Of a stretch of 27,228 nucleotides of DNA, positions 241 through 19,003 are shown in pieces; the first letter of the stretch is position 1, and every line of letters starts with the position of its first letter. The stretch is taken from NCBI GenBank assembly GCA_903868205.1, contig CAIPUJ010000062.1, forward strand, positions 1-27,228. The letters run 5' to 3'. Source of the stretch: an uncultured bacterium (GTDB lineage: Bacteria; Patescibacteriota; Minisyncoccia; Phycocordibacterales; GWA1-40-21). A program made the translations under genes and the position numbers. Under the pieces are notes generated by a model. It ran no database searches and was not told the origin of the DNA. It was given only the letters and a program-made list of their open reading frames with translations.

Positions 241-536
241 TCTTTACCCCGTGAAATAACTTTTAGATTTATTATATATGTATTATACGTATGTATTACA
301 TTCAACCAAAGACAAGAAATTGTACGTTGGTTGTACAAAAAATCTAAAAGTAAGATTTGAGGATCATAATAATGGTAGGGTTGAGTCTACAATAGACCGA
401 CGTCCACTTAAATTAATTTATTACGAATCCTGTTTAAATAAAGTTGATGCATTGCATCGTGAACTTTATTTAAAGTCAGCTTATGGTAAAAAAGTTTATC
501 AAAAGTCGTCTCAAATCTTATTTCATGGGGTGAAGA
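241..536. mobile_element. Candidate inverted-repeat-bounded cassette carrying the GIY-YIG gene
   Basis: TCTTTACCCCGTGAAATAA (241-259) and TTATTTCATGGGGTGAAGA (518-536) are inverted repeats matching at 17/19 positions (both differences are G.T-type). They enclose the whole GIY-YIG reading frame; the right repeat contains its natural stop. Confidence 0.55.
278..533 (+). pseudogene. Small GIY-YIG nuclease family protein with a +1 frameshift in an A6 run (488-493)
   Basis: N-terminus has the motif pattern YTYVL...LYVGCT..L..R...H...REL.LK. Removing one A from 488-493 gives the family-like ending YGKKFIKSRLKSYFMG with stop TGA at 531-533. As written, the frame runs on into secE. Confidence 0.75.
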
Positions 537-571
537 TTTTGAAATTCGCTTCGCTCATAACAAAATCATTC

Positions 572-751
572 ATGTCAAAACTATCAAATTACATTTTGGA
601 AACAAAAGGAGAGTTAAAGCACGTAAGTTGGCCTACAAAAAAACAGACACTTATGTTTACTGCACTCGTAATAATTATTTCAATTGGAGTTGCTATTTCT
701 CTTGGTCTTTTTGACTATCTTTTTACAAGCATTTTAAAGATGTTTATATAA
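572..751 (+). CDS. secE: Preprotein translocase subunit SecE (59 aa, single transmembrane helix)
   Basis: ELKHVSWPT motif followed by a hydrophobic helix; directly upstream of nusG; ATG at 572 is residue 99 of the ORF-track 278..751 frame. Confidence 0.93.
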   Translation: MSKLSNYILETKGELKHVSWPTKKQTLMFTALVIIISIGVAISLGLFDYLFTSILKMFI

Positions 752-752
752 T

Positions 753-1298
753 ATGGCGAAACAAACTATAGAAGAGGGAAGACACTGGTATGCTATCCAC
801 ACTTATGCTGGATATGAAAATGCCGTTGCTAGAAATTTAAAACAAAGAATCGATTCTTTAAACATGAATGGAAAGATTTTTGATGTAGTTGTTCCTGTAG
901 AAAAGAAAATTAAAATAAAAGGAAACAAAAGAGTTGAAGAAGAAGAGAAGATATATCCTGGATACATTTTGGTAGATATGTTGGTAGACGATGAATCTTG
1001 GTTCGTTGTCAGAAACACTCCTAGAGTTACTGGTTTCGTCGGTGCTGGAGTATATCCTGTACCGCTTACTCCAAAAGAAGTAGAATTCTTCCTTGGTAAA
1101 ATGGGTGATCAGAAAGTAACTCATGATGTTGCTTTTGCAAAAGGGGAGGATGTAAAGATAGTAGACGGTCCTTTCAAAGATTTAGAAGGTAAGATAAGTG
1201 AGATAGATAGTGAGAAGGGTAAGGCAAGAGTTATGGTCCTTATGTTCGGTAGAGAGACTTCAGTCGAACTTGATCTTCTACAAATAAGAAAAGCTTAG
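753..1298 (+). CDS. nusG: Transcription termination/antitermination factor NusG
   Basis: WYAIHTYAGYE N-terminus, YPGYILV, RNTPRVTGFVG, KOW domain with DGPF and FGRETSVEL. Confidence 0.98.
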   Translation: MAKQTIEEGRHWYAIHTYAGYENAVARNLKQRIDSLNMNGKIFDVVVPVEKKIKIKGNKRVEEEEKIYPGYILVDMLVDDESWFVVRNTPRVTGFVGAGVYPVPLTPKEVEFFLGKMGDQKVTHDVAFAKGEDVKIVDGPFKDLEGKISEIDSEKGKARVMVLMFGRETSVELDLLQIRKA

Positions 1299-1361
1299 CT
1301 TTACTTTCAGTCCAATTTCTGATACTTTATTCAAGCCTCTCAATAACTAATTAATAAACAA

Positions 1362-1784
1362 ATGGCAAAGAAAATAACAAAAAAATTAAAACTTCAAATA
1401 GCTGCGGGTAAAGCTACTCCAGCTCCACCTATCGGTCCAGCTTTGGGTCAGGCAGGTATAAACATTGGTGATTTCGTCAACAAGTTTAATACAGCAACCA
1501 AAGACAAGATCGGAGATGTATTACCAGTAGTTATCACAGTTTATGAAGATAGATCTTATGATTTCATTCTTAAGACTCCTCCAACAGCTAGTATGATACT
1601 TAAGGCTCTTGGACAAGAAAAAGGTTCAGGTAAGCCAAATACAAAGAAAATTGGTTCAATCACAAAAGCTCAAGTAAAAGAAATCGCAGAAAAGAAGCTT
1701 GTAGATATGAATGCAAACGATATAGCTGGTGCAATGAAAATGGTAGAAGGTGCAGCTAGATCTATGGGGGTTGAAGTTAAATAA
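1362..1784 (+). CDS. rplK: 50S ribosomal protein L11
   Basis: [32 protein letters not shown] motifs; secE-nusG-rplK order. Confidence 0.98.
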
Positions 1785-1787
1785 AAG

Positions 1788-1814
1788 AAAAAACATGCGA
1801 TGAGCATGTTTTTT
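1788..1814 (+). terminator. Intrinsic terminator-like hairpin after rplK
   Basis: AAAAAACATGC-gatga-GCATGTTTTTT, 11-bp perfect stem ending in a T run, 3 nt after the rplK stop. Confidence 0.7.
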
Positions 1815-1816
1815 AA

Positions 1817-1983
1817 TTTTAACTTCAACCGGCCGGAGGCTGACGAGACGAGGTTGAAATTTGGGTAGGGACCCAAATGAAAAACCTTGAACGTTTTGTA
1901 CTAAAATGTGAAAGGTGTACTGCTCCTGTAAGGAGGGCCCAGGCAACTTTTCAGCAGAAAAGTATGCGTGGGTTGAAGTAAAA
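1817..1983. other. Multi-hairpin structured intergenic element (candidate ncRNA or repeat)
   Basis: Closing stem TTTTAACTTCAACC (1817-1830) / GGTTGAAGTAAAA (1971-1983). Internal hairpins at 1859-1878, 1884-1916, 1923-1935 and 1946-1963. Confidence 0.45.
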
Positions 1984-1986
1984 GGA

Positions 1987-2122
1987 TAAAGGCTCACTCG
2001 GCTTCTCTTTTTAAAAACACGATAAAAATACCGCCGTCGCGGTATTTTTTCTATACTCACAAAATTTCTTGCTAGAAATTTCGCTCCGTAATATTTTTAA
2101 AAAGTGAAACCTCGCTCGCTTA
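1987..2122 (+). repeat. Dispersed ~135-bp palindromic repeat, copy 1
   Basis: 131/136 identical to 27048-27183; diverged inverted copy at ~19014-19143. Outer CTTTTTAAAAA/TTTTTAAAAAG stem plus two internal hairpins. Confidence 0.95.
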
Positions 2123-2136
2123 TGGGCAGAGGGGAA

Positions 2137-2178
2137 AATGCAAAAGGCGGAATGCGAAAGTATTCCGCCTTTTGCATT
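2137..2178 (+). terminator. 19-bp hairpin with GAAA tetraloop (terminator-like)
   Basis: AATGCAAAAGGCGGAATGC-gaaa-GTATTCCGCCTTTTGCATT with one G.U pair, followed by a T-rich tract. Confidence 0.55.
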
Positions 2179-2235
2179 ATTTTTTTCTCCTTGTCTACTC
2201 TTTGCAAGAGCTACTAAAAGAGTAAAATTATATGT

Positions 2236-2730
2236 ATGGAAAATACTAAACATGTGAGACCAAGTTGGGATGAATATTTTATTCAGTTAACGGAACTTGT
2301 TGGTTCACGTGGCACTTGTGATCGCGGACGTTCTGGATCTGTGATTGTAAAAAACAAAAGAATTATTGCTACAGGATATGTCGGAGCGCCAGCTGGTTTA
2401 CCAAGTTGCGATGAGGTAGGGCACGAGATGCACACCGTCACTCAGGAAGATGGAACTGTTTCTAAACATTGTATTAGAACTGGTCACGCAGAACAAAATG
2501 CCATAAACAATGCAGCACGTATTGGTGTTGCCACAGAAGGTGCAACTTTATATTGCAAAATGACTCCTTGTTATAAGTGTGCTCAAAGTATTATTAATGC
2601 GGGTATTGTTAGGGTAGTGGCTCTTCAAGATTATCATGGTGGAGCAAGGAGCAAAGAGATTTTTAAAGAAACCGGAGTTGTTTTTGAATTATTGAAAGAA
2701 GAGATGACAACTTACGAGAATATGAAATAA
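2236..2730 (+). CDS. dCMP deaminase (ComEB/deoxycytidylate deaminase family)
   Basis: RPSWDEYF N-terminus; zinc-deaminase motifs HAEQNA and PCYKC; heads a thymidylate gene cluster. Confidence 0.9.
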   Translation: MENTKHVRPSWDEYFIQLTELVGSRGTCDRGRSGSVIVKNKRIIATGYVGAPAGLPSCDEVGHEMHTVTQEDGTVSKHCIRTGHAEQNAINNAARIGVATEGATLYCKMTPCYKCAQSIINAGIVRVVALQDYHGGARSKEIFKETGVVFELLKEEMTTYENMK

Positions 2731-10193: not shown

Positions 10194-10257
10194 AATTTTG
10201 TTTAATTAACTATTAATATCTTAATTATACATTAAATTTTAGGTTTTAGGTGGGCTA

Positions 10258-10286
10258 TTGACAAAAAGACTCAAGGGGTGTATACT
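10258..10286 (+). promoter_or_regulatory. Near-consensus sigma70 promoter of the DGR target gene
   Basis: TTGACA (10258-10263), 17 nt, TATACT (10281-10286). Confidence 0.8.
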
Positions 10287-10318
10287 ACTAATATAGTTCT
10301 TTGATATAGATACTTTGT

Positions 10319-10370
10319 TTGGTTGTAGCCAAAAGGCCTTGTAAACATGAGGTTTTCTGGCTATGACCAA
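10319..10370 (+). promoter_or_regulatory. Long imperfect hairpin in the 5' leader of the DGR target gene
   Basis: TTGGTTGTAGCCA...AAGGCCTT-gtaaacat-GAGGTTTT...TGGCTATGACCAA, with several G.U pairs. Confidence 0.6.
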
Positions 10371-10422
10371 CACAGACGTTGATCAAGCAAATGGTAAAAA
10401 CCTAAAGAGAGGAAAAAGTACC

Positions 10423-11058
10423 ATGAGCGAACAAAAACAAGTAGGACAGTTACATGCGGTAGTTTTGCAAAATCTACCCGAAATGACAATTGAGCAGAGA
10501 CAGAAATGGATCAATGACCCGAAAGGAATGCAAGAATTTCTTTCTGGTTTGGTCGGTTCTAAATTCTCAGAGCATGATGGTGGAATTTATTTCACTGTCA
10601 CCTCAAATGGCTTCTCGGGTAAGGACTGGATTAAGCACTTCAACAAGAAGGGCGTGGAGATCGGCAATTATGCGAAACAGCTCCTTTTGTCCGAAGACTT
10701 CAAGCCAAGCAAAAAGGGCACTACTTCGCAAATCGTTGTCATCAAGGGAGAATTTTTCTCTGACAACGATCGTATCACGTCAAAGATTCGGGAGGAAGCC
10801 GATCGTCGTAATATGACCAAGCCGAATGCTGAAGTAGCGTGCCTCATTCGTGACTTGTTCACGGATGACGAGATTAAAGCGATGGGTCTTTCTTGGATTG
10901 TGACAATGCACGAACCCATCAAAGATTCTGACGGCGATCCTCACTTGCTCAGCACGAATCGGAACGGCAACAAGTCTTGGCTCAGCACGTACTACGGCCC
11001 GCCTGACCGCAGGTGGCATCGTGGGAGCGGTTTCGCCTTTGTTGCTCCGCAAGTATAA
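10423..11058 (+). CDS. DGR target (variable) protein, 211 aa; C-terminal VR, probably a C-type lectin-like fold
   Basis: C-terminal 42 codons match TR; ends W...GFAF-like. ATG 10423 has GAGAGGA 8 nt upstream and is preferred over ATG 10363, which lies inside the leader hairpin. Confidence 0.9.
   Translation: MSEQKQVGQLHAVVLQNLPEMTIEQRQKWINDPKGMQEFLSGLVGSKFSEHDGGIYFTVTSNGFSGKDWIKHFNKKGVEIGNYAKQLLLSEDFKPSKKGTTSQIVVIKGEFFSDNDRITSKIREEADRRNMTKPNAEVACLIRDLFTDDEIKAMGLSWIVTMHEPIKDSDGDPHLLSTNRNGNKSWLSTYYGPPDRRWHRGSGFAFVAPQV
10926..11050 (+). repeat. DGR variable repeat (VR)
   Basis: 125 bp, 114/125 identical to TR. Differences at 10942, 10967, 10985, 10997, 10999, 11000, 11008, 11009, 11017, 11024, 11027, each opposite a TR adenine. 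Confidence 0.98.
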
Positions 11059-11120
11059 GTACTCGGAACTTTGCCCCTCGGACCTCTTGGATCCTTTGGA
11101 CTTTGTCCTTCCGAAATACC

Positions 11121-11169
11121 CAGTCCACTTACTCAAACCATTTGGTGAGAGTGAGTGGGCTGTTTTTTT
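11121..11169 (+). terminator. Terminator-like hairpin downstream of the target gene
   Basis: CAGTCCACTTACTC (11121-11134) pairs with GAGTGAGTGGGCTG (11149-11162) using two G.U pairs; T7 tract follows. Confidence 0.75.
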
Positions 11170-11407
11170 GTGTTAAAATAAAGTTGGTAGTAGGTAAATA
11201 TGTGAGCGATCAAGATTTCTCACTACCGAATCCAGTATCCATACATCGGGATTATTTAAGATTAAGATTTTAGATAGAGTGGTGTGTGAAGACAATTCAA
11301 CAAAAATGAAGATACTTGGTACAGAATATTATAGTATTTCAAATACTGCATCAGATACAACCCTGAGAGTGCTCAAGGGGTGGTGGTAAAGAAAGTATTT
11401 TGTACAT

Positions 11408-11532
11408 TTCTGACGGCGATCCTAACTTGCTCAGCACGAATCGGAACGACAACAAGTCTTGGCTCAACACGTACTACGACAAGCCTGACAACAGGTGGAA
11501 TCGTGAGAACGGTTTCGCCTTTGTTGCTCCGC
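11408..11532 (+). ncRNA. DGR template repeat (TR)
   Basis: Non-coding copy of VR with 32 adenines, rich in AAC/AAT codons in the VR frame; the last 23 nt are adenine-free and identical to VR. Confidence 0.97.
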
Positions 11533-11546
11533 TAATTTTTTCATTT

Positions 11547-11568
11547 CTCTCCTACTTTGGTAGGAGAG
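11547..11568. other. Perfect hairpin 14 nt downstream of TR (spacer-region hairpin candidate)
   Basis: CTCTCCTAC-tttg-GTAGGAGAG, 9-bp stem; overlaps the avd stop codon on the minus strand. Confidence 0.7.
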
Positions 11569-11958
11569 TTTTGTTTTTAATTTGGTTATGCCAGCCTCCT
11601 AGCATTTTACCTATTTCATATAGCTTTTCTGAGATTTCGGCATATTTTTTATTATCTATCGATTTTATTTCCCATGCTATTTGCATAAGAATTTTTGCTG
11701 TATCTAGTTTCATTATTGCTCTTTTTATAAAAGGTAGTTTTTCTTCTGGTTTTAAAAAGCTAGCTATACTTATGTTTTCTATGACTTCAATAAATAGTGT
11801 ATCTATTTTTCCACCAAGGGAATATTTTGTCGTCTTTGGGAAGAGCGTTAAATATTGTTGCCAGACTTTATATAGGGAAATAAACTTTGATAAAATTGGT
11901 AAAACTGTCGGGGGGGGGGGGTATTATTAGTTTTGTGACTAGAAAAATTTGTGTTCAT
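11552..11958 (-). CDS. avd: Avd-like accessory protein (four-helix bundle), frameshifted at the G12 tract; not in the ORF track
   Basis: Minus-strand frame 11911->11552 translates PTVLPILSKFISLYKVWQQYLTLFPKTTKYSLGGKID...KLDTAKILMQIAWE...EIGKMLGGWHNQIKNKTLLPK*, with the Avd-like FPK..KYSLG and EIGKMLGGW motifs. The nearest ATG (11958) is in frame only with 10 or 13 G. Confidence 0.85.
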
Positions 11959-12933
11959 AAATACGATGATATCATTTCTGTCGAAAATTTACTCCTTGCG
12001 TGGAAAGAATTTTTAGTGGGTAAAACTAAAAAGACAGATGTACAAGAGTTTCAACTGAGACTTTCAGATAATATTTTTGATTTACAATATGATTTGAAAA
12101 ACAAGGTGTATTCACATAGCAAGTATTTTGCTTTTAAGGTGAATGACCCAAAACCGAGGGATATACATAAAGCCAGTGTGAGAGATAGATTACTTCACCA
12201 TGCTATTTATAGGATTTTATATCCTTTTTTCAATAATACTTTTATCGCCGATTCTTTTTCTTGCAGATTAGGGAAAGGGACTCACAGAGCAGTAAAAAGA
12301 TTGAATTATTTTTACGGAAAAGTCTCTAAGAATAATACGAAACAGGTTTGGGCTTTGAAATGTGATATAAGAAAGTTTTTTGACTCTATCAATCACGAAA
12401 TACTTTTGAGTATTTTAGACTCGTATATTGAGGATAAAGAAATTATGGAACTTTTAAGGAAAATAATATCTAGTTTTTATAAAAAAGAAGTTGGATGTGG
12501 TTTACCACTGGGGAATCTCACTTCACAACTTTTCGTAAATATTTATATGAATGTTTTTGATCAGTTTGTTAAGCATAAAATAAGGGCGAAGTACTATATA
12601 AGATATTCAGATGATTTTATTATTTTGTCAGATAACAAGAAGTGGCTTGAGGGTATTTTAATAGAGATAAATAGATTTCTCTCGGATAGATTAAAGTTAT
12701 CTTTACATCCAAATAAGGTTTATATCAAGACATTTTCTTCTGGTGTAGATTTTTTGGGCTGGATTAACTTTGCAGATTTTAAAATATTGAGAAAGAGTAC
12801 AAAAAAGAGAATGTTTAGGGGCCTTTTAGAAAAAGGATTTAAAAAAGAATCTGTACAATCTTATCTTGGGCTTTTGAGCCACGGGAATGAATATAAGACA
12901 AGAAGTAAAATCACGTCTTCTCTCATAGAATAA
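11887..12933 (+). CDS. DGR-class reverse transcriptase
   Basis: KPRDI...RDRLLHHA, SCRLGKGTH, LKCDIRKFFDSI, GLPLGNLTSQLF (DGR-type LGxxxSQ), RYSDD catalytic motif, GVDFLG. Start is either TTG 11887 or GTG 11935. Confidence 0.95.
   Translation: MIKLVKLSGGGGIISFVTRKICVHKYDDIISVENLLLAWKEFLVGKTKKTDVQEFQLRLSDNIFDLQYDLKNKVYSHSKYFAFKVNDPKPRDIHKASVRDRLLHHAIYRILYPFFNNTFIADSFSCRLGKGTHRAVKRLNYFYGKVSKNNTKQVWALKCDIRKFFDSINHEILLSILDSYIEDKEIMELLRKIISSFYKKEVGCGLPLGNLTSQLFVNIYMNVFDQFVKHKIRAKYYIRYSDDFIILSDNKKWLEGILIEINRFLSDRLKLSLHPNKVYIKTFSSGVDFLGWINFADFKILRKSTKKRMFRGLLEKGFKKESVQSYLGLLSHGNEYKTRSKITSSLIE
11910..11921. repeat. G12 homopolymer inside the avd/RT head-to-head overlap
   Basis: 12 consecutive G in an otherwise AT-rich sequence. 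Confidence 0.9.
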
Positions 12934-12955
12934 TTATGCTATTATTAATCCAAAT

Positions 12956-14686
12956 ATGATCAAAGAAATTTTAGAAAATTCAATAAAAATAGCCCTTTGG
13001 GAGCTTAAGATAGAAGAGGCCAAAATCCCTAAGATAAATCTAGAACACCCAGAAGATTCTTCTCGTGGTGATTATTCTACAAATATCGCCATGGTGCTTG
13101 CTAAGGCTGTAGCTCAAAATCCTAGAGAGTTGGCAGAAAAAATAGTTGCTGAAATAAATGATAATAAACCGAAGGAAATAAAAAATGTCGAAATGGCTGG
13201 CCCTGGCTTTATAAATTTCTTTTTGTCTGACTCCTTTTTTGCTGAACAAATAAAAAACATTTTAAAATCCGAAAAAACTTTTGGGAATAATAAAAAACTA
13301 AAAGGTCAGAAGACTGTTATCGAATATACTGATCCAAATCCTTTTAAAGAATTTCATATTGGGCACTTAATGAGTAATACAATAGGGGAAAGTGTCTCTA
13401 GAATTATTGAGGCGAACGGATCAAAGATCATTCGTGCTTGTTATCAAGGTGACGTCGGCCTTCATGTAGCGAAAACAATTTGGGGTGTACAGAAAATGAT
13501 TTCAGAAGACTCTAAAAACAAAAAAAAGTTTTTTGATATAAAACAGGGTTCTGCTTTGTGGGGTAAGACATATGCGGTAGGAGCGAAAGCGTATGAAGCG
13601 GATGAACAAGCTAAAAAAGAAGTTACGGAGATAAATAAAAAAGTTTATACGAAGTCTGATAAAGAAGTAAATAAGATCTATACAGCAGGTAGGAAAGCAT
13701 CTCTTAATGCTTTTGATAAGATGTATAAAATATTAGATACTAAATTTAATAATTTCTTTTTTGAAAGTCAGTCTACAAAATTTGGTACTGATATCGTATC
13801 AAACAATATTGATAATGGAATTTTTGAAAAGAGTAATGGTGCGGTGATTTTTAAAGGGGAGAATTATGGCCTACACACTAGAGTTTTTATAAACAGCGAA
13901 GGGCTTCCTACATATGAAGCAAAAGATCTTGGACTAGCAAAACTCAAAGACAATACTTTACATTATGATAAATCTATTATTGTCACGGCCAATGAACAGA
14001 GTGCATATTTTACGGTACTTTTGAAAGCTATGAGTTTAATCTTTCCAGATTTAGCAGAAAAAACAGAACACGTATCTCATGGTATGCTTCGTCTGCCTTC
14101 AGGGAAAATGTCTTCAAGAACAGGAGATGTAGTTTCTGCTACTTCTCTGCTTAAAGATATTGAAGATAAAGTAATAGAGAAAATGGTTGAGAGAGATATG
14201 ACCAAAAAAGAAAAAACAAAAGTTGCGGAGTGGATTTCTGTTGCATCTCTCAGATATTCAATACTCAAACAAATGACCGGTAAAGATATTGTTTTTGATT
14301 TTGATAAGTCGCTTTCTTTTGAAGGGGATTCTGGTCCTTACTTACAATATTCATATGCTAGAGCAAAATCTGTTTTGAGAAAAGCGGTGAAAGAAAGAAT
14401 AAAAATAAATTCTAAAAAAGTAGATGGTGAAGTTTCGGAAATAGAAAAAATACTGTATAGATTCCCAGAAATAGTAGAAAGAGCAGGTGAGGAATATGCA
14501 CCAAACTATATTGCTACATATTTAATACAGCTCTCATCTGCCTTTAATGGATATTATGCGAATAATAAAATTGTAGATAAAGAAGACAAAAATTCTGCAT
14601 ATAGACTCGCCATTACAAAAGTATTCACTATTGTTTTGAAGAATGGTTTGAAACTTTTGGGTATCTCTGCTCCAGAAAAGATGTAA
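12956..14686 (+). CDS. argS: Arginine--tRNA ligase
   Basis: GDYSTN, GPGFINF, EYTDPNPFKEFHIGH, KMSSRTG, GDSGPYLQYSYAR, APEKM C-terminus. Confidence 0.98.
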   Translation: MIKEILENSIKIALWELKIEEAKIPKINLEHPEDSSRGDYSTNIAMVLAKAVAQNPRELAEKIVAEINDNKPKEIKNVEMAGPGFINFFLSDSFFAEQIKNILKSEKTFGNNKKLKGQKTVIEYTDPNPFKEFHIGHLMSNTIGESVSRIIEANGSKIIRACYQGDVGLHVAKTIWGVQKMISEDSKNKKKFFDIKQGSALWGKTYAVGAKAYEADEQAKKEVTEINKKVYTKSDKEVNKIYTAGRKASLNAFDKMYKILDTKFNNFFFESQSTKFGTDIVSNNIDNGIFEKSNGAVIFKGENYGLHTRVFINSEGLPTYEAKDLGLAKLKDNTLHYDKSIIVTANEQSAYFTVLLKAMSLIFPDLAEKTEHVSHGMLRLPSGKMSSRTGDVVSATSLLKDIEDKVIEKMVERDMTKKEKTKVAEWISVASLRYSILKQMTGKDIVFDFDKSLSFEGDSGPYLQYSYARAKSVLRKAVKERIKINSKKVDGEVSEIEKILYRFPEIVERAGEEYAPNYIATYLIQLSSAFNGYYANNKIVDKEDKNSAYRLAITKVFTIVLKNGLKLLGISAPEKM

Positions 14687-15445: not shown

Positions 15446-18400
15446 ATGGATACACCCAAAAAGAGTAAAAATGCTGAAAGAGAAGAAGAATTATTAAAAT
15501 TTTGGCAGGAGAATAAAATTTTTGAAAAGACTTTAACGAAAGATTCACCAAAAGGTGAGTATGTCTTTTATGACGGACCTCCTTTTGCTACTGGTTTACC
15601 GCACTTCGGGCATATTCTTGCTGGAACAATGAAAGATTTTGTGGGCAGATATAAAACAATGAGAGGATACCATGTTCCAAGAAGATGGGGTTGGGATTGT
15701 CACGGTCTTCCTGTAGAAAATATTGTTCAAGATGAGATTGGTTTGAAATCAAAAAAAGATATTGAAGATTTTGGTTTAGAAAAATTCAATGATACCGCAA
15801 GAAGCAAAGTTTTTACATATGTAGATGATTGGAAAAAGATTGTTCCAAGAATGGGCCGTTTTGTAGATATGGAGAATGACTACAAGACGCTAAATCCGAG
15901 CTATACAGAAAGTGTTTGGTGGGCCTTTAAAAAATTACAGGATAAAGGATTGATTTACGAAGGTTTTAAATCAATGCATCTTTGTCCACAGTGTGGAACG
16001 ACTCTTTCAAACTTTGAGGTAGGGCAGGGATATAAAGATATTACTGATATTTCAGTAACAGCTAAATTTGAATTGATAGATGAGCCAGGAACATTTTTCC
16101 TTGCATGGACAACAACCCCTTGGACTCTTCCTGGTAACGTGGCTTTAGCTATAAATTCTGAAATTGATTATGTTAAAATTGTTGAAGTAGCGAAAACTAC
16201 TATTGGTGAATCTAATGGCAGATATGATTTACCAAGTGGAGAAAAATATATTTTAGCCAAGGCAATTTTTGCAAAAGAATCTCAGAAACTTACACCAGAT
16301 GGATCATCAGAAGTATACATCTATAACAATAAAAATTATAAAATATTAGAAACTTTTATTGGAGAAAAAATAGTTGGTAAATCATACAAACCACTTTTTG
16401 ATTATTACAATAACGACAAACTTAAAAACAGAGAAAATGGTTTTAAGGTATATTCTGCAAGTTTTGTAACTACTGAAGATGGTACTGGTATTGTGCATAT
16501 TGCACCGGCTTTTGGAGAAGACGATATGAATCTTGGAAAAGAAAAGAAACTTCCTTTTATCCAACATGTAAATATGGCTGGAGAATTTACTCCAGAAGTT
16601 TTTGACTTTGCAGGACAAAAAGTAAAACCAAAAGACGATCACCAGAAAGCAGATATTGATGTTATTAAATTTTTAGCAGGTAAAAATTCTCTATATGCAA
16701 AAGAAAAATTTACTCACTCATATCCTCATTGTTGGAGATGTGATACACCACTCCTAAACTACGCGACAAGCTCTTGGTTTGTTGAGGTTACAAAAATAAA
16801 AAATGATCTTATAGAAGCAAATAATAAAATCGGATGGGTACCGAAAGAAATAGGAGAGGGAAGATTTGGTAAGTGGCTTGAGAATGTTCGTGACTGGTCT
16901 ATTTCTCGTTCTAGATTCTGGGGCGCTCCTTTACCTGTGTGGAGATGTGAAAAATGTAAGGGTAATCATTTTGTGGGTTCAATAGAAGATATTAAAAAAC
17001 AAACAACAAGAAATAATAAATTCTTGGTTGTTCGTCATGGCGAAGCAGAAAGTAATGTTCTAGGTATTTTAAGTTCAAATCCAAAAGTAAATCATTCTCT
17101 TACACAAAATGGTAAAGATCAGGCTGTGGAAGCAGGGGACAAACTCAAAGATACAAAAGTAGATATTATTTATTGTTCTCCTTTTGTAAGAACAAAAGAA
17201 ACAGCAGAGCTTATTGCAAAACAGATTGGATATCCTGTGGAAAAAATAGTTTTTGATGAAAGACTTCATGAAATATATGTCGGTGTTCTTGATGGTAAAC
17301 CAGATGCAGAATATCAAGCATTCTTTGAATCAAGAGGTGCGAAGTTTTGGAAGACTCCAGAAGGAGGGGAGAACTATACTACTGTAAAAAACAGAATGAC
17401 TGATTTTCTTTATGATATAAATTCTAAAAATGAAGGTAAGAATATTTTAATTGTTTCCCACAATACACCTATCTGGCTTATGTTTGGTGGTGCTTCTGGT
17501 ATGACACCAGAGCAACTTATGGCGATGAGAGAAGCCGGTAAACCTTTTATTTATAACGCAGAAGTAAAAGAGCTTGAATTTGCAGCTATTCCTCACAATA
17601 GAAATTACGAATTAGATTTACACAGACCATTTATCGATGAGCTTATTTTGCCGTGTAAATGTGGTGGAGAAATGAAGCGCATCCCAGAAGTTTTTGATTG
17701 TTGGTTTGAATCAGGCTCAATGCCGTTTGCACAGTCTCATTATCCATTTGAGAATTTAGATAAATTTAATCCAGAAAAAGGTATTGGTTTCCCAGCAGAC
17801 TTTATCGCCGAAGGAGTAGATCAAACTAGAGGATGGTTTTATTCTATGCTTGTCCTTTCTGTTGCTTTGTTTGGTGAATCTTCTTATAAAAATGTTGTTG
17901 TAAATGGAATTGTTCTCGCTGAAGATGGGCAGAAGATGGCGAAGAGATTAAAAAATTATACTCCACCTATGGAGTTGGCAGATAAATTTAGCGCAGATGC
18001 AATGAGATATTACTTATTGTCTTCAAGTGTTATGAAAGCTGAAGATTTGAAATTCTCAGATGAAGGAGTAGATGAAGTCGTAAAAAAAGTAATTATGAGG
18101 CTTCAAAATGTTCATTCTTTCTACGAAATGTACGGAGGAAAAGATTTGAAAGAAAAAGTTGGAAATTCTCTCAATGTTTTGGATAAGTGGATTCTTGCAC
18201 GATTGAAAGAAACAGCAACACAGATGACAAAGTCTACAGAAAAATATGAGCTTGATAGAGCAACCTGGCCTATAGCTGACTTTATTGAAGATCTTTCCAC
18301 TTGGTTTCTAAGAAGATCAAGAGACAGATTCAAATCAGAAAATATTTCTGATAGAAATTTTGCTATAAATACAACAAAAGAAATTATTCTAAACGTTTCT

Positions 18401-19003
18401 AAACTTATCGCTCCATCAATGCCTTTTTTGGCTGAAGATTTGTATAAGAAAATTGGAGGAGAAAAAGAAAGCGTACATTTAGAAGCTTGGCCAGATGAAT
18501 TTGTAGGGGAACTTACAAAAGAAGAAGTCGAGACAATAGAAAATATGAAGGACGTCAGAAATGCTGTTTCTCTCGGGTTAGAATCTAGAGCAAAATCTGG
18601 AATTAAAGTCAGACAACCTTTAGCTAAAATACAAATTCAAAGTGAAAAGCTAAAAGGCAAACAGGAATACTTAGATTTGATTAAAGATGAAGTAAATGTG
18701 AAAGAAGCGATCACAGACAAAAGTATTTCTGAATTGGTAGTGCTTGATACAAATATTACTCCAGACTTAAAAGATGAAGGGGATATAAGAGATTTAATTA
18801 GAAGTATTCAAGAAGAAAGAAAGAATAAAAAACTAAGTCCAAATGATTTGATTGGACTTACTGTAGATACTAATGATATTGGCAAGAGTCTTGTAGAAAA
18901 GTTTAAAGATGAAATAGTTAGGGTTACAAATGTTAAGGATATTTCTTTCGGCCCAAACATTCAAGAAAACTCACCCGGTATTTTTATCAAGTTCTTAGTT
19001 TAG
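15446..19003 (+). CDS. ileS: Isoleucine--tRNA ligase, type 2, with an inserted histidine-phosphatase domain
   Basis: DGPPFATGLPHFGH, GWDCHGLP, WTTTPWTLPGN, EGVDQTRGWF, KMAKR; type-2-like C-terminus; RHG motif at residue 530. Confidence 0.96.
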   Translation: MDTPKKSKNAEREEELLKFWQENKIFEKTLTKDSPKGEYVFYDGPPFATGLPHFGHILAGTMKDFVGRYKTMRGYHVPRRWGWDCHGLPVENIVQDEIGLKSKKDIEDFGLEKFNDTARSKVFTYVDDWKKIVPRMGRFVDMENDYKTLNPSYTESVWWAFKKLQDKGLIYEGFKSMHLCPQCGTTLSNFEVGQGYKDITDISVTAKFELIDEPGTFFLAWTTTPWTLPGNVALAINSEIDYVKIVEVAKTTIGESNGRYDLPSGEKYILAKAIFAKESQKLTPDGSSEVYIYNNKNYKILETFIGEKIVGKSYKPLFDYYNNDKLKNRENGFKVYSASFVTTEDGTGIVHIAPAFGEDDMNLGKEKKLPFIQHVNMAGEFTPEVFDFAGQKVKPKDDHQKADIDVIKFLAGKNSLYAKEKFTHSYPHCWRCDTPLLNYATSSWFVEVTKIKNDLIEANNKIGWVPKEIGEGRFGKWLENVRDWSISRSRFWGAPLPVWRCEKCKGNHFVGSIEDIKKQTTRNNKFLVVRHGEAESNVLGILSSNPKVNHSLTQNGKDQAVEAGDKLKDTKVDIIYCSPFVRTKETAELIAKQIGYPVEKIVFDERLHEIYVGVLDGKPDAEYQAFFESRGAKFWKTPEGGENYTTVKNRMTDFLYDINSKNEGKNILIVSHNTPIWLMFGGASGMTPEQLMAMREAGKPFIYNAEVKELEFAAIPHNRNYELDLHRPFIDELILPCKCGGEMKRIPEVFDCWFESGSMPFAQSHYPFENLDKFNPEKGIGFPADFIAEGVDQTRGWFYSMLVLSVALFGESSYKNVVVNGIVLAEDGQKMAKRLKNYTPPMELADKFSADAMRYYLLSSSVMKAEDLKFSDEGVDEVVKKVIMRLQNVHSFYEMYGGKDLKEKVGNSLNVLDKWILARLKETATQMTKSTEKYELDRATWPIADFIEDLSTWFLRRSRDRFKSENISDRNFAINTTKEIILNVSKLIAPSMPFLAEDLYKKIGGEKESVHLEAWPDEFVGELTKEEVETIENMKDVRNAVSLGLESRAKSGIKVRQPLAKIQIQSEKLKGKQEYLDLIKDEVNVKEAITDKSISELVVLDTNITPDLKDEGDIRDLIRSIQEERKNKKLSPNDLIGLTVDTNDIGKSLVEKFKDEIVRVTNVKDISFGPNIQENSPGIFIKFLV

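Follow-up and report, generated by a model that had tools for sequence, protein, structure and literature searches.

The stretch of DNA considered here, contig CAIPUJ010000062.1 from an uncultured member of the Patescibacteria, almost certainly carries a genuine diversity-generating retroelement (DGR). All coordinates refer to this stretch at its full length of 27,228 nt, which we call the window. The element is an ordinary member of a known architecture, termed B3 and typical of the candidate phyla radiation (CPR), in which the target gene with its variable region (VR), the template region (TR) and the gene for the reverse transcriptase (RT) lie on one strand and the accessory gene avd is encoded on the other. 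This reading is supported by several features taken together, namely a bRT-like RT, an Avd homolog, mismatches between the two repeats that are confined to template adenines and to the first and second codon positions, a target protein with a predicted C-type-lectin fold, and concerted evolution of TR and VR among related loci. As a further well-documented example of a class whose abundance in the CPR is established, the element is of value as a clean reference case, and its interest lies mostly in a clade-wide homopolymer and in the architecture of the TR RNA; the homopolymer, which falls within the avd reading frame, and a structured RNA 5' of the TR are both conserved, and neither has an equivalent in the Bordetella system that has been studied.

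The core of the evidence is a direct repeat of 125 nt, the single long one in the region, which was found by a repeat search and confirmed by our own count, and whose two copies are the VR and the TR (Table 1). The copies differ at 11 of the 125 positions, each of which is an adenine in the TR, with six changes from A to G and five from A to C; given the 32 adenines of the TR, the probability that all 11 would fall on adenines by chance is 7e-8. Mutagenesis at TR adenines has thus taken place in the past, as had been claimed in a preliminary description of this DNA, whose count and spectrum of mismatches proved exact on recounting and whose list of nine residue changes from the TR-encoded peptide to that of the VR (N194H, D202G, N208S, D212G, K213P, N216R, N219H, E221G and N222S) is correct in every case by our own alignment. 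The same holds for its 32 adenines and for the 23-nt adenine-free stretch at the 3' end of the TR (11510-11532), which is identical in the VR and resembles an initiation of mutagenic homing (IMH) site. The absence of A-to-T changes in the window is marginal when set against the spectrum of the clade (G 59%, T 24%, C 17%; p = 0.05).

The placement of the template adenines within codons also fits a DGR. The VR occupies the 3' end of the 231-codon target gene, and the TR adenines fall 14 times at the first, 18 times at the second and never at the third codon position. Eight TR codons are of the type AAY, and a stop codon can be reached by mutation only from two AAG codons; up to 22 codons are variable, with a theoretical repertoire of about 10^18.7 peptides. 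A search for additional VR copies, which the preliminary description had proposed, was run across the whole genome and found no further copy of the window TR or VR.

The RT is intact and of full length, and its closest relatives point to the DGR clade. Among solved structures the best match is to the 328-aa RT of entry 8ub7 (one of the entries 8ub7-8ube), which we take to be the Bordetella phage bRT; the match runs over the full length (residues 10-315) with an E value of 4.4e-42, and the next solved matches, to RTs of the group II intron and retron types, follow at about 1e-19 to 1e-20. These similarities support the placement of the protein as a bRT-like RT of the DGR clade. The preliminary description had identified an LGNLTSQ motif and an uncommon YSDD centre, and both motifs are present where it placed them; YSDD is, however, a minority motif and not a rarity, being found in 21 of the 120 nearest RTs, against 93 with YADD and 119 with GNLTSQ. 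The start of the gene is placed at GTG 11935 because the N-termini of homologs align there, as does the public gene call, which gives the identical 332 residues. A start at TTG 11887, which would read through the G tract described below, was considered and rejected, as both the homologs and the gene call fit GTG 11935.

Between the TR and the RT gene lies an antisense open frame of 123 codons with recognizable similarity to Avd. It matches the Pfam family bAvd with an E value of 3e-11 and 44.1 bits against a cutoff of 40, and its best family overall is NCBIfam DivGenRetAVD, with an E value of 2e-16 at a score below the 80-bit cutoff of that family; the predicted protein is basic, with a pI of 9.64. 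TR, reversed avd and RT thus follow one another in the core order TR-(avd)-RT that defines architecture B3, which in the main text of Wu et al. (Nucleic Acids Res 2018, PMC5758913) makes up 90% of the set of DGRs from the CPR. For comparison we assembled a family set of 53 genomes, 30 of which have a relative of the window RT, and a broad set of 80 loci from Patescibacteria species representatives, 68 of which were usable for the orientation of avd. In all 68 of these, avd is antisense and directly upstream of the RT gene, and a VR/TR pair is present in 60 of 61 loci, where 994 of 1053 mismatches lie at TR adenines. Given this uniformity and the published description of B3, the layout of the window is typical and not new, and the novelty that the preliminary description had seen in it falls away.

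Comparison with the closest cassettes indicates that the transfer of information from TR to VR has been repeated. Two other genomes (loci L013 and L020) carry an orthologous cassette with about 69% DNA identity across target, TR, avd and RT, and their TRs differ from that of the window at 12 and 13 non-adenine sites, respectively. At these sites the VR follows its own TR in 12 of 12 and 13 of 13 cases. Concerted evolution of this kind, together with differences within each genome that are restricted to adenines, argues for repeated copying of TR into VR, and, as read from these aligned cassettes, it shows retrohoming to have operated in the lineage since its split from relatives with the same cassette.

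A different kind of exchange is suggested by two sister loci, L003 and L007, whose RTs are 87-93% identical to that of the window and whose avd genes are about 94% identical. L003 is syntenic with the window and has the target promoter and the TR flanks in common with it; the block at 10258-10370 is 93% conserved despite the different target gene that follows. Each of the two loci has a target gene and matching TR (2554-3582 in L003 and 1034-2091 in L007) unlike those of the other locus and of the window (10363-11532), and each target type recurs beside RTs that are only about 60% identical. Three target/TR cassettes beside such similar RTs suggest a joint exchange of target and template within a scaffold that is itself conserved.

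The target protein belongs to a large, uncharacterised family of the Patescibacteria with a predicted C-type-lectin fold. Profile searches matched no Pfam or NCBIfam family, the more than 225 homologs are all hypothetical proteins of Patescibacteria, and the clusters of the ESM Atlas and the AlphaFold DB contain only CPR proteins without a name. When the last 45 residues of the family are aligned, the scaffold residues are invariant and the hypervariable columns are those of the adenine-templated codons. An AF2 model of the target has a pLDDT of 85, and in a VIA-align comparison with a representative PDB set, C-type-lectin and FGE folds dominate the top matches (EgtB, TvpA, Mtd and FGE-type proteins) with Z scores of 5.4-6.5; the C-terminal domain is accordingly given here as a predicted C-type-lectin fold. 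The protein has no hydrophobic segment, the maximum hydropathy over 19 residues on the Kyte-Doolittle scale being 0.63, and a target without a secretion signal raises the question of what the ligand of an apparently intracellular variable binder would be in an episymbiont. The region of the target gene (10350-11100) also has a G+C content of 0.44-0.53, compared with 0.28-0.34 for its surroundings and the DGR machinery.

Table 1. Features of the DGR and its flanks in the window; positions of the second DGR are those of its own locus, L127.
Feature	Position	Strand	Description
DGR target gene, 231 aa	10363-11058	+	ORF; alternative start ATG 10423; N-terminal helices, then predicted C-type-lectin-fold domain at about residues 66-231
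Promoter-like site of target gene	10258-10286	+	TTGACA, 17 nt, TATACT; 11/12 matches (promoter scan)
Variable region (VR)	10926-11050	+	Target codons 189-229; hypervariable columns of the family alignment are TR codons with adenine
Post-VR stretch	11059-11115	+	CTTGG / CTTTG / CCTCGG motifs, loosely periodic; after VR, not after TR
Intrinsic terminator of target gene	11121-11169	+	14-bp stem then U7; fold -29.7 kcal/mol, z -6.6
Possible TR RNA promoter	11289-11316	+	AAGACA, 16 nt, GATACT; putative, read by eye, below promoter-scan threshold
Conserved structured RNA domain directly 5' of TR	11319-11405	+	Stem 11319-11330/11394-11405 enclosing two hairpins
Template region (TR)	11408-11532	+	32 adenines, none at codon position 3; 23-nt A-free IMH-like end
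Hairpin and T-run 3' of TR	11547-11578	+	9 bp, -15.5 kcal/mol, z -5.3; terminator-like; overlaps avd stop codon
avd (accessory variability determinant)	11552-11923	-	Frame open 11923-11555, stop 11554-11552; bAvd match
G12 tract	11910-11921	.	Reads as C12 in avd, where it encodes Pro; homopolymer at the 5' end of that gene
DGR reverse transcriptase, 332 aa	11935-12933	+	GTG 11935 start; LGNLTSQ 12508-12528; YSDD 12604-12615; RVT_1 E 1.5e-26
Second DGR (L127)	VR 237-386; avd 465-887 (+); TR 944-1093; RT 1127-2251		Lcl_C-type target, 5'-truncated

Several observations weigh against the reading of the window as a genuine and working DGR, and they bear on the alternatives to different degrees. Two of them concern single parts: for the target, the match to known folds is of moderate strength, and a Foldseek search of the target model against the PDB returned only non-significant matches to langerin and snake lectins, the fold assignment being taken from VIA-align; and the adenine-free 3' stretch is the same in TR and VR, the copies diverging right after it, so that it cannot by itself tell the donor from the recipient. 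The furthest-reaching alternative, that the repeat is no more than a duplicated piece of a gene lying beside an unrelated RT of a retron, a group II intron or a defence system, can point to models of group II intron, retron and defence-associated (DRT) enzymes that also score on the protein, all far below their cutoffs. It is effectively refuted by the restriction of the mismatches to adenines, by the lead of 20 orders of magnitude that the bRT-like 8ub7 holds among solved matches, by the presence of an Avd homolog and by the recurrence of both the arrangement and the adenine bias in about 60 related loci, and we give it practically no credence. What remains to be weighed is whether the DGR has recently been silenced or is decaying, with no Avd for want of a start codon, no retrohoming and a frozen VR. 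In the assembly, no ATG, GTG or TTG stands in the avd frame upstream of the conserved core of the gene or anywhere before the internal ATG 11713, and the sole near-cognate candidate is ATT 11896-11894. Of the two sister loci, L003 has an avd interrupted by a TGG-to-TAG stop and an RT gene shifted by +1, and L007 likewise has a frameshifted RT. The public runs that contain window DNA, four lake samples from one study, represented by assembled Logan contigs at a depth of 3-7x, give the same VR consensus throughout, with no variant VR, a result of little weight in either direction, and the number of VR/TR differences in the window is the lowest among the loci examined, the others having 12-25. 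Set against this, the window RT is undamaged, and none of its VR/TR mismatches lies at a non-adenine site, compared with three in L003, where both RT and avd are broken. The avd frame, moreover, is open throughout and under strong purifying selection, with a dN/dS of 0.04 at a dS of 0.48 relative to L007, which likewise has no canonical start, and therefore the Avd protein was made throughout that divergence; the length of the G12 run comes from a low-coverage metagenome assembly and may be off by one. Recent silencing is on these grounds an unlikely account, and the genuine DGR may still be active at the present day.

The state of avd leads to an alternative of another kind, in which the G/C homopolymer gates Avd and hence the whole DGR, the window being OFF at 12 G and ON at 13 or 10. 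The preliminary description had called the DGR complete, and every part is indeed present, but at the tract length of the assembly no canonical start codon is in frame with avd; a minus-strand ATG at 11958-11956 would be in the avd frame only with 13 or 10 G. Three processes could each bring this upstream ATG into frame: a slipped-strand change in length, slippage during transcription, and +1 frameshifting at the C-run. As in phase-variable loci, the homopolymer sits within the open frame, where a change in length would shift it. A tract of G8-13 occupies the equivalent place, where avd and the RT gene diverge, in 26 of the 31 loci of the family and 53 of the 68 of the broader set, and in every tract-bearing locus the avd frame continues through it without a stop and encodes Pro-Pro-Pro. 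These prolines are encoded by CCC only, although the G+C content of the genomes is about 33%, which suggests that the homopolymer itself is under selection, and its clade-wide conservation makes the tract a conserved feature rather than a peculiarity of the window or an assembly error, even if its exact length here could be off by one. In six loci (L024, L029, L032, L034, L037 and L118) an ATG or TTG start lies in frame just upstream of the tract, giving M-x-PPP, and in others the adjacent ATG is one base out of the avd frame; L006 and L009 are identical across 3964 nt save for the tract, which has 12 G in one and 11 in the other. Two other near-identical sets, drawn from several samples, speak against such switching, since L118 and L119 share a G9 tract despite 14 SNPs elsewhere, and L120-L122, identical throughout, have G9 too. 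A constitutive Avd is also conceivable in the 49 of 53 tract loci of the broad sample where a TTG, GTG or ATG of the avd frame lies close to the tract, and another possibility is a role on the RT strand, either as a 5' leader or as a G-run resembling a Shine-Dalgarno sequence 12 nt before GTG 11935. No Logan contig of the four runs spans the tract, and a scan of JGI metagenome contigs for alternative tract lengths, made with exact flanks, found no match. Avd could thus be under a slippage or phase switch, although we regard the gating of the whole element by tract length as doubtful.

For the genuine DGR that we favour, the course of events would be as follows. Transcription of the TR would probably yield a separate RNA, about 255 nt long, which would have a promoter to itself, a 5' domain with structure and a terminal hairpin with a U-run; the RT, with Avd, would then copy it into cDNA, misincorporating opposite adenines, and the cDNA would replace the VR at the 3' end of the target gene, changing up to the full set of variable codons. 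Two parts of this scheme, the stand-alone TR RNA and a recipient-marking role for the motifs that follow the VR, we infer from the flanks of the two repeats, as set out below.

On the 5' side of the TR, the block around GATACTTGGT is nearly invariant in 16 loci and, with an upstream AAGACA, could be the promoter of the TR RNA. It is followed by the structured domain, in which 13 of the 20 pairs that RNAalifold gives for the 16 loci show compensatory changes, in agreement with the fold of the single sequence; a scan of 10200-13000 against Rfam at E<=1 found no family. On the 3' side, a hairpin with a T-run (the latter at 11569-11578) begins about 15 nt after the TR. When sequences are folded one at a time, such a hairpin is seen in 21 of 27 related loci, with stem sequences that differ between them. 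RNAalifold recovered only 4 pairs in the region 3' of the TR because MAFFT had misaligned the variable stem. The covarying domain on one side and the hairpin and T-run on the other suggest that the TR forms a discrete, structured RNA of the length given above, which would not read through the antisense avd.

The question of how donor and recipient are told apart is raised by the adenine-free stretch common to both. Cases in which IMH and IMH* are identical are mentioned in the main text of Wu et al. (PMC5758913), where recognition is expected to extend downstream. In the window, the VR is followed by a motif-rich stretch of about 55 nt and then by a strong terminator, and most related loci, irrespective of their target family, have comparable motif-rich DNA after the VR. 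The periodicity in the window is loose, as Tandem Repeats Finder gave the stretch no score. This stretch could be a candidate recognition mark on the recipient side.

Among known systems, the B3 elements of the CPR are the nearest. As described in the main text of PMC5758913, they likewise consist of target, TR, reversed avd and RT in a patescibacterial host, with a small target without known domains and a C-terminal VR, and from these the window DGR shows no difference in kind. The same main text, its supplements aside, makes no mention of a homopolymer at the 5' end of avd, nor of a structured RNA domain 5' of the TR or a hairpin with a T-run after it.

The system of Bordetella phage BPP-1 (mtd-avd-TR-brt), for which a structure of bRT with Avd and RNA is available (bioRxiv 10.1101/2023.10.23.563531), shares several parts with the window element. 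Its RT is homologous to that of the window over the full length (E 4e-42), and both systems have an Avd homolog, adenine-specific transfer from TR to VR, an adenine-free TR 3' end and a target with a C-terminal VR and a C-type-lectin fold, predicted in the case of the window. The window differs in that avd lies antisense between TR and RT, the element is chromosomal and not phage-borne, IMH and IMH* are identical, and the target has no evident secretion signal. A further difference concerns the RNA. In BPP-1, a 140-nt spacer downstream of the TR contains both the priming adenosine and the structured RNA that the system requires (10.1101/2023.10.23.563531), whereas in the window the TR is followed only by about 15 nt, the hairpin and the T-run, and conserved structure is found upstream instead. 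Priming may therefore be arranged differently. It is conceivable, though in our view improbable, that both peculiarities matter, with the tract of the B3 elements of the CPR acting as a stochastic or slippage gate on Avd (OFF in the window) and a discrete TR RNA with a 5' recognition domain implying a different priming geometry; if this were true, a hypermutation machine would itself be switched by a hypermutable tract.

The likeness of the target to variable proteins of other DGRs is structural. TvpA of Treponema denticola (2y3c) aligns to the predicted domain with a Z score of 5.7 over 143 residues and the phage protein Mtd (1yu0) with 5.4 over 113 residues, and in all three proteins the variable residues lie within the last 40 or so. 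Sequence identity to TvpA and Mtd is 7-13%, the N-terminal part of the window target is different and helical, and the target has no match to the Pfam families FGE-sulfatase or DUF1566.

The element is flanked by a gene for a DUF5671 membrane protein on one side and by the genes for arginyl- and isoleucyl-tRNA synthetase on the other, neighbours that are syntenic in L003 and that bear out the chromosomal location assigned to it in the preliminary description. The genome, of 743 kb, contains two DGRs of different architecture. The second, on contig C19 (L127:1-2251), has the co-oriented classical order target-avd-TR-RT, and 17 of its 18 mismatches lie at TR adenines. It resembles the window element in its Avd homolog, its adenine-biased VR/TR pair and an RT with the motif IGNLTSQ, joined here by YVDD, and differs from it in order, in its Lcl_C (DUF1566-type) target, in the absence of a G tract and in the distance of its proteins, the RTs being 35-42% and the Avd proteins 28% identical. 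Beyond the DGR, the isoleucyl-tRNA synthetase ORF of the window (15446-19003, 1185 aa) has an apparent inserted histidine-phosphatase domain, and its ortholog in L003 matches His_Phos_1.

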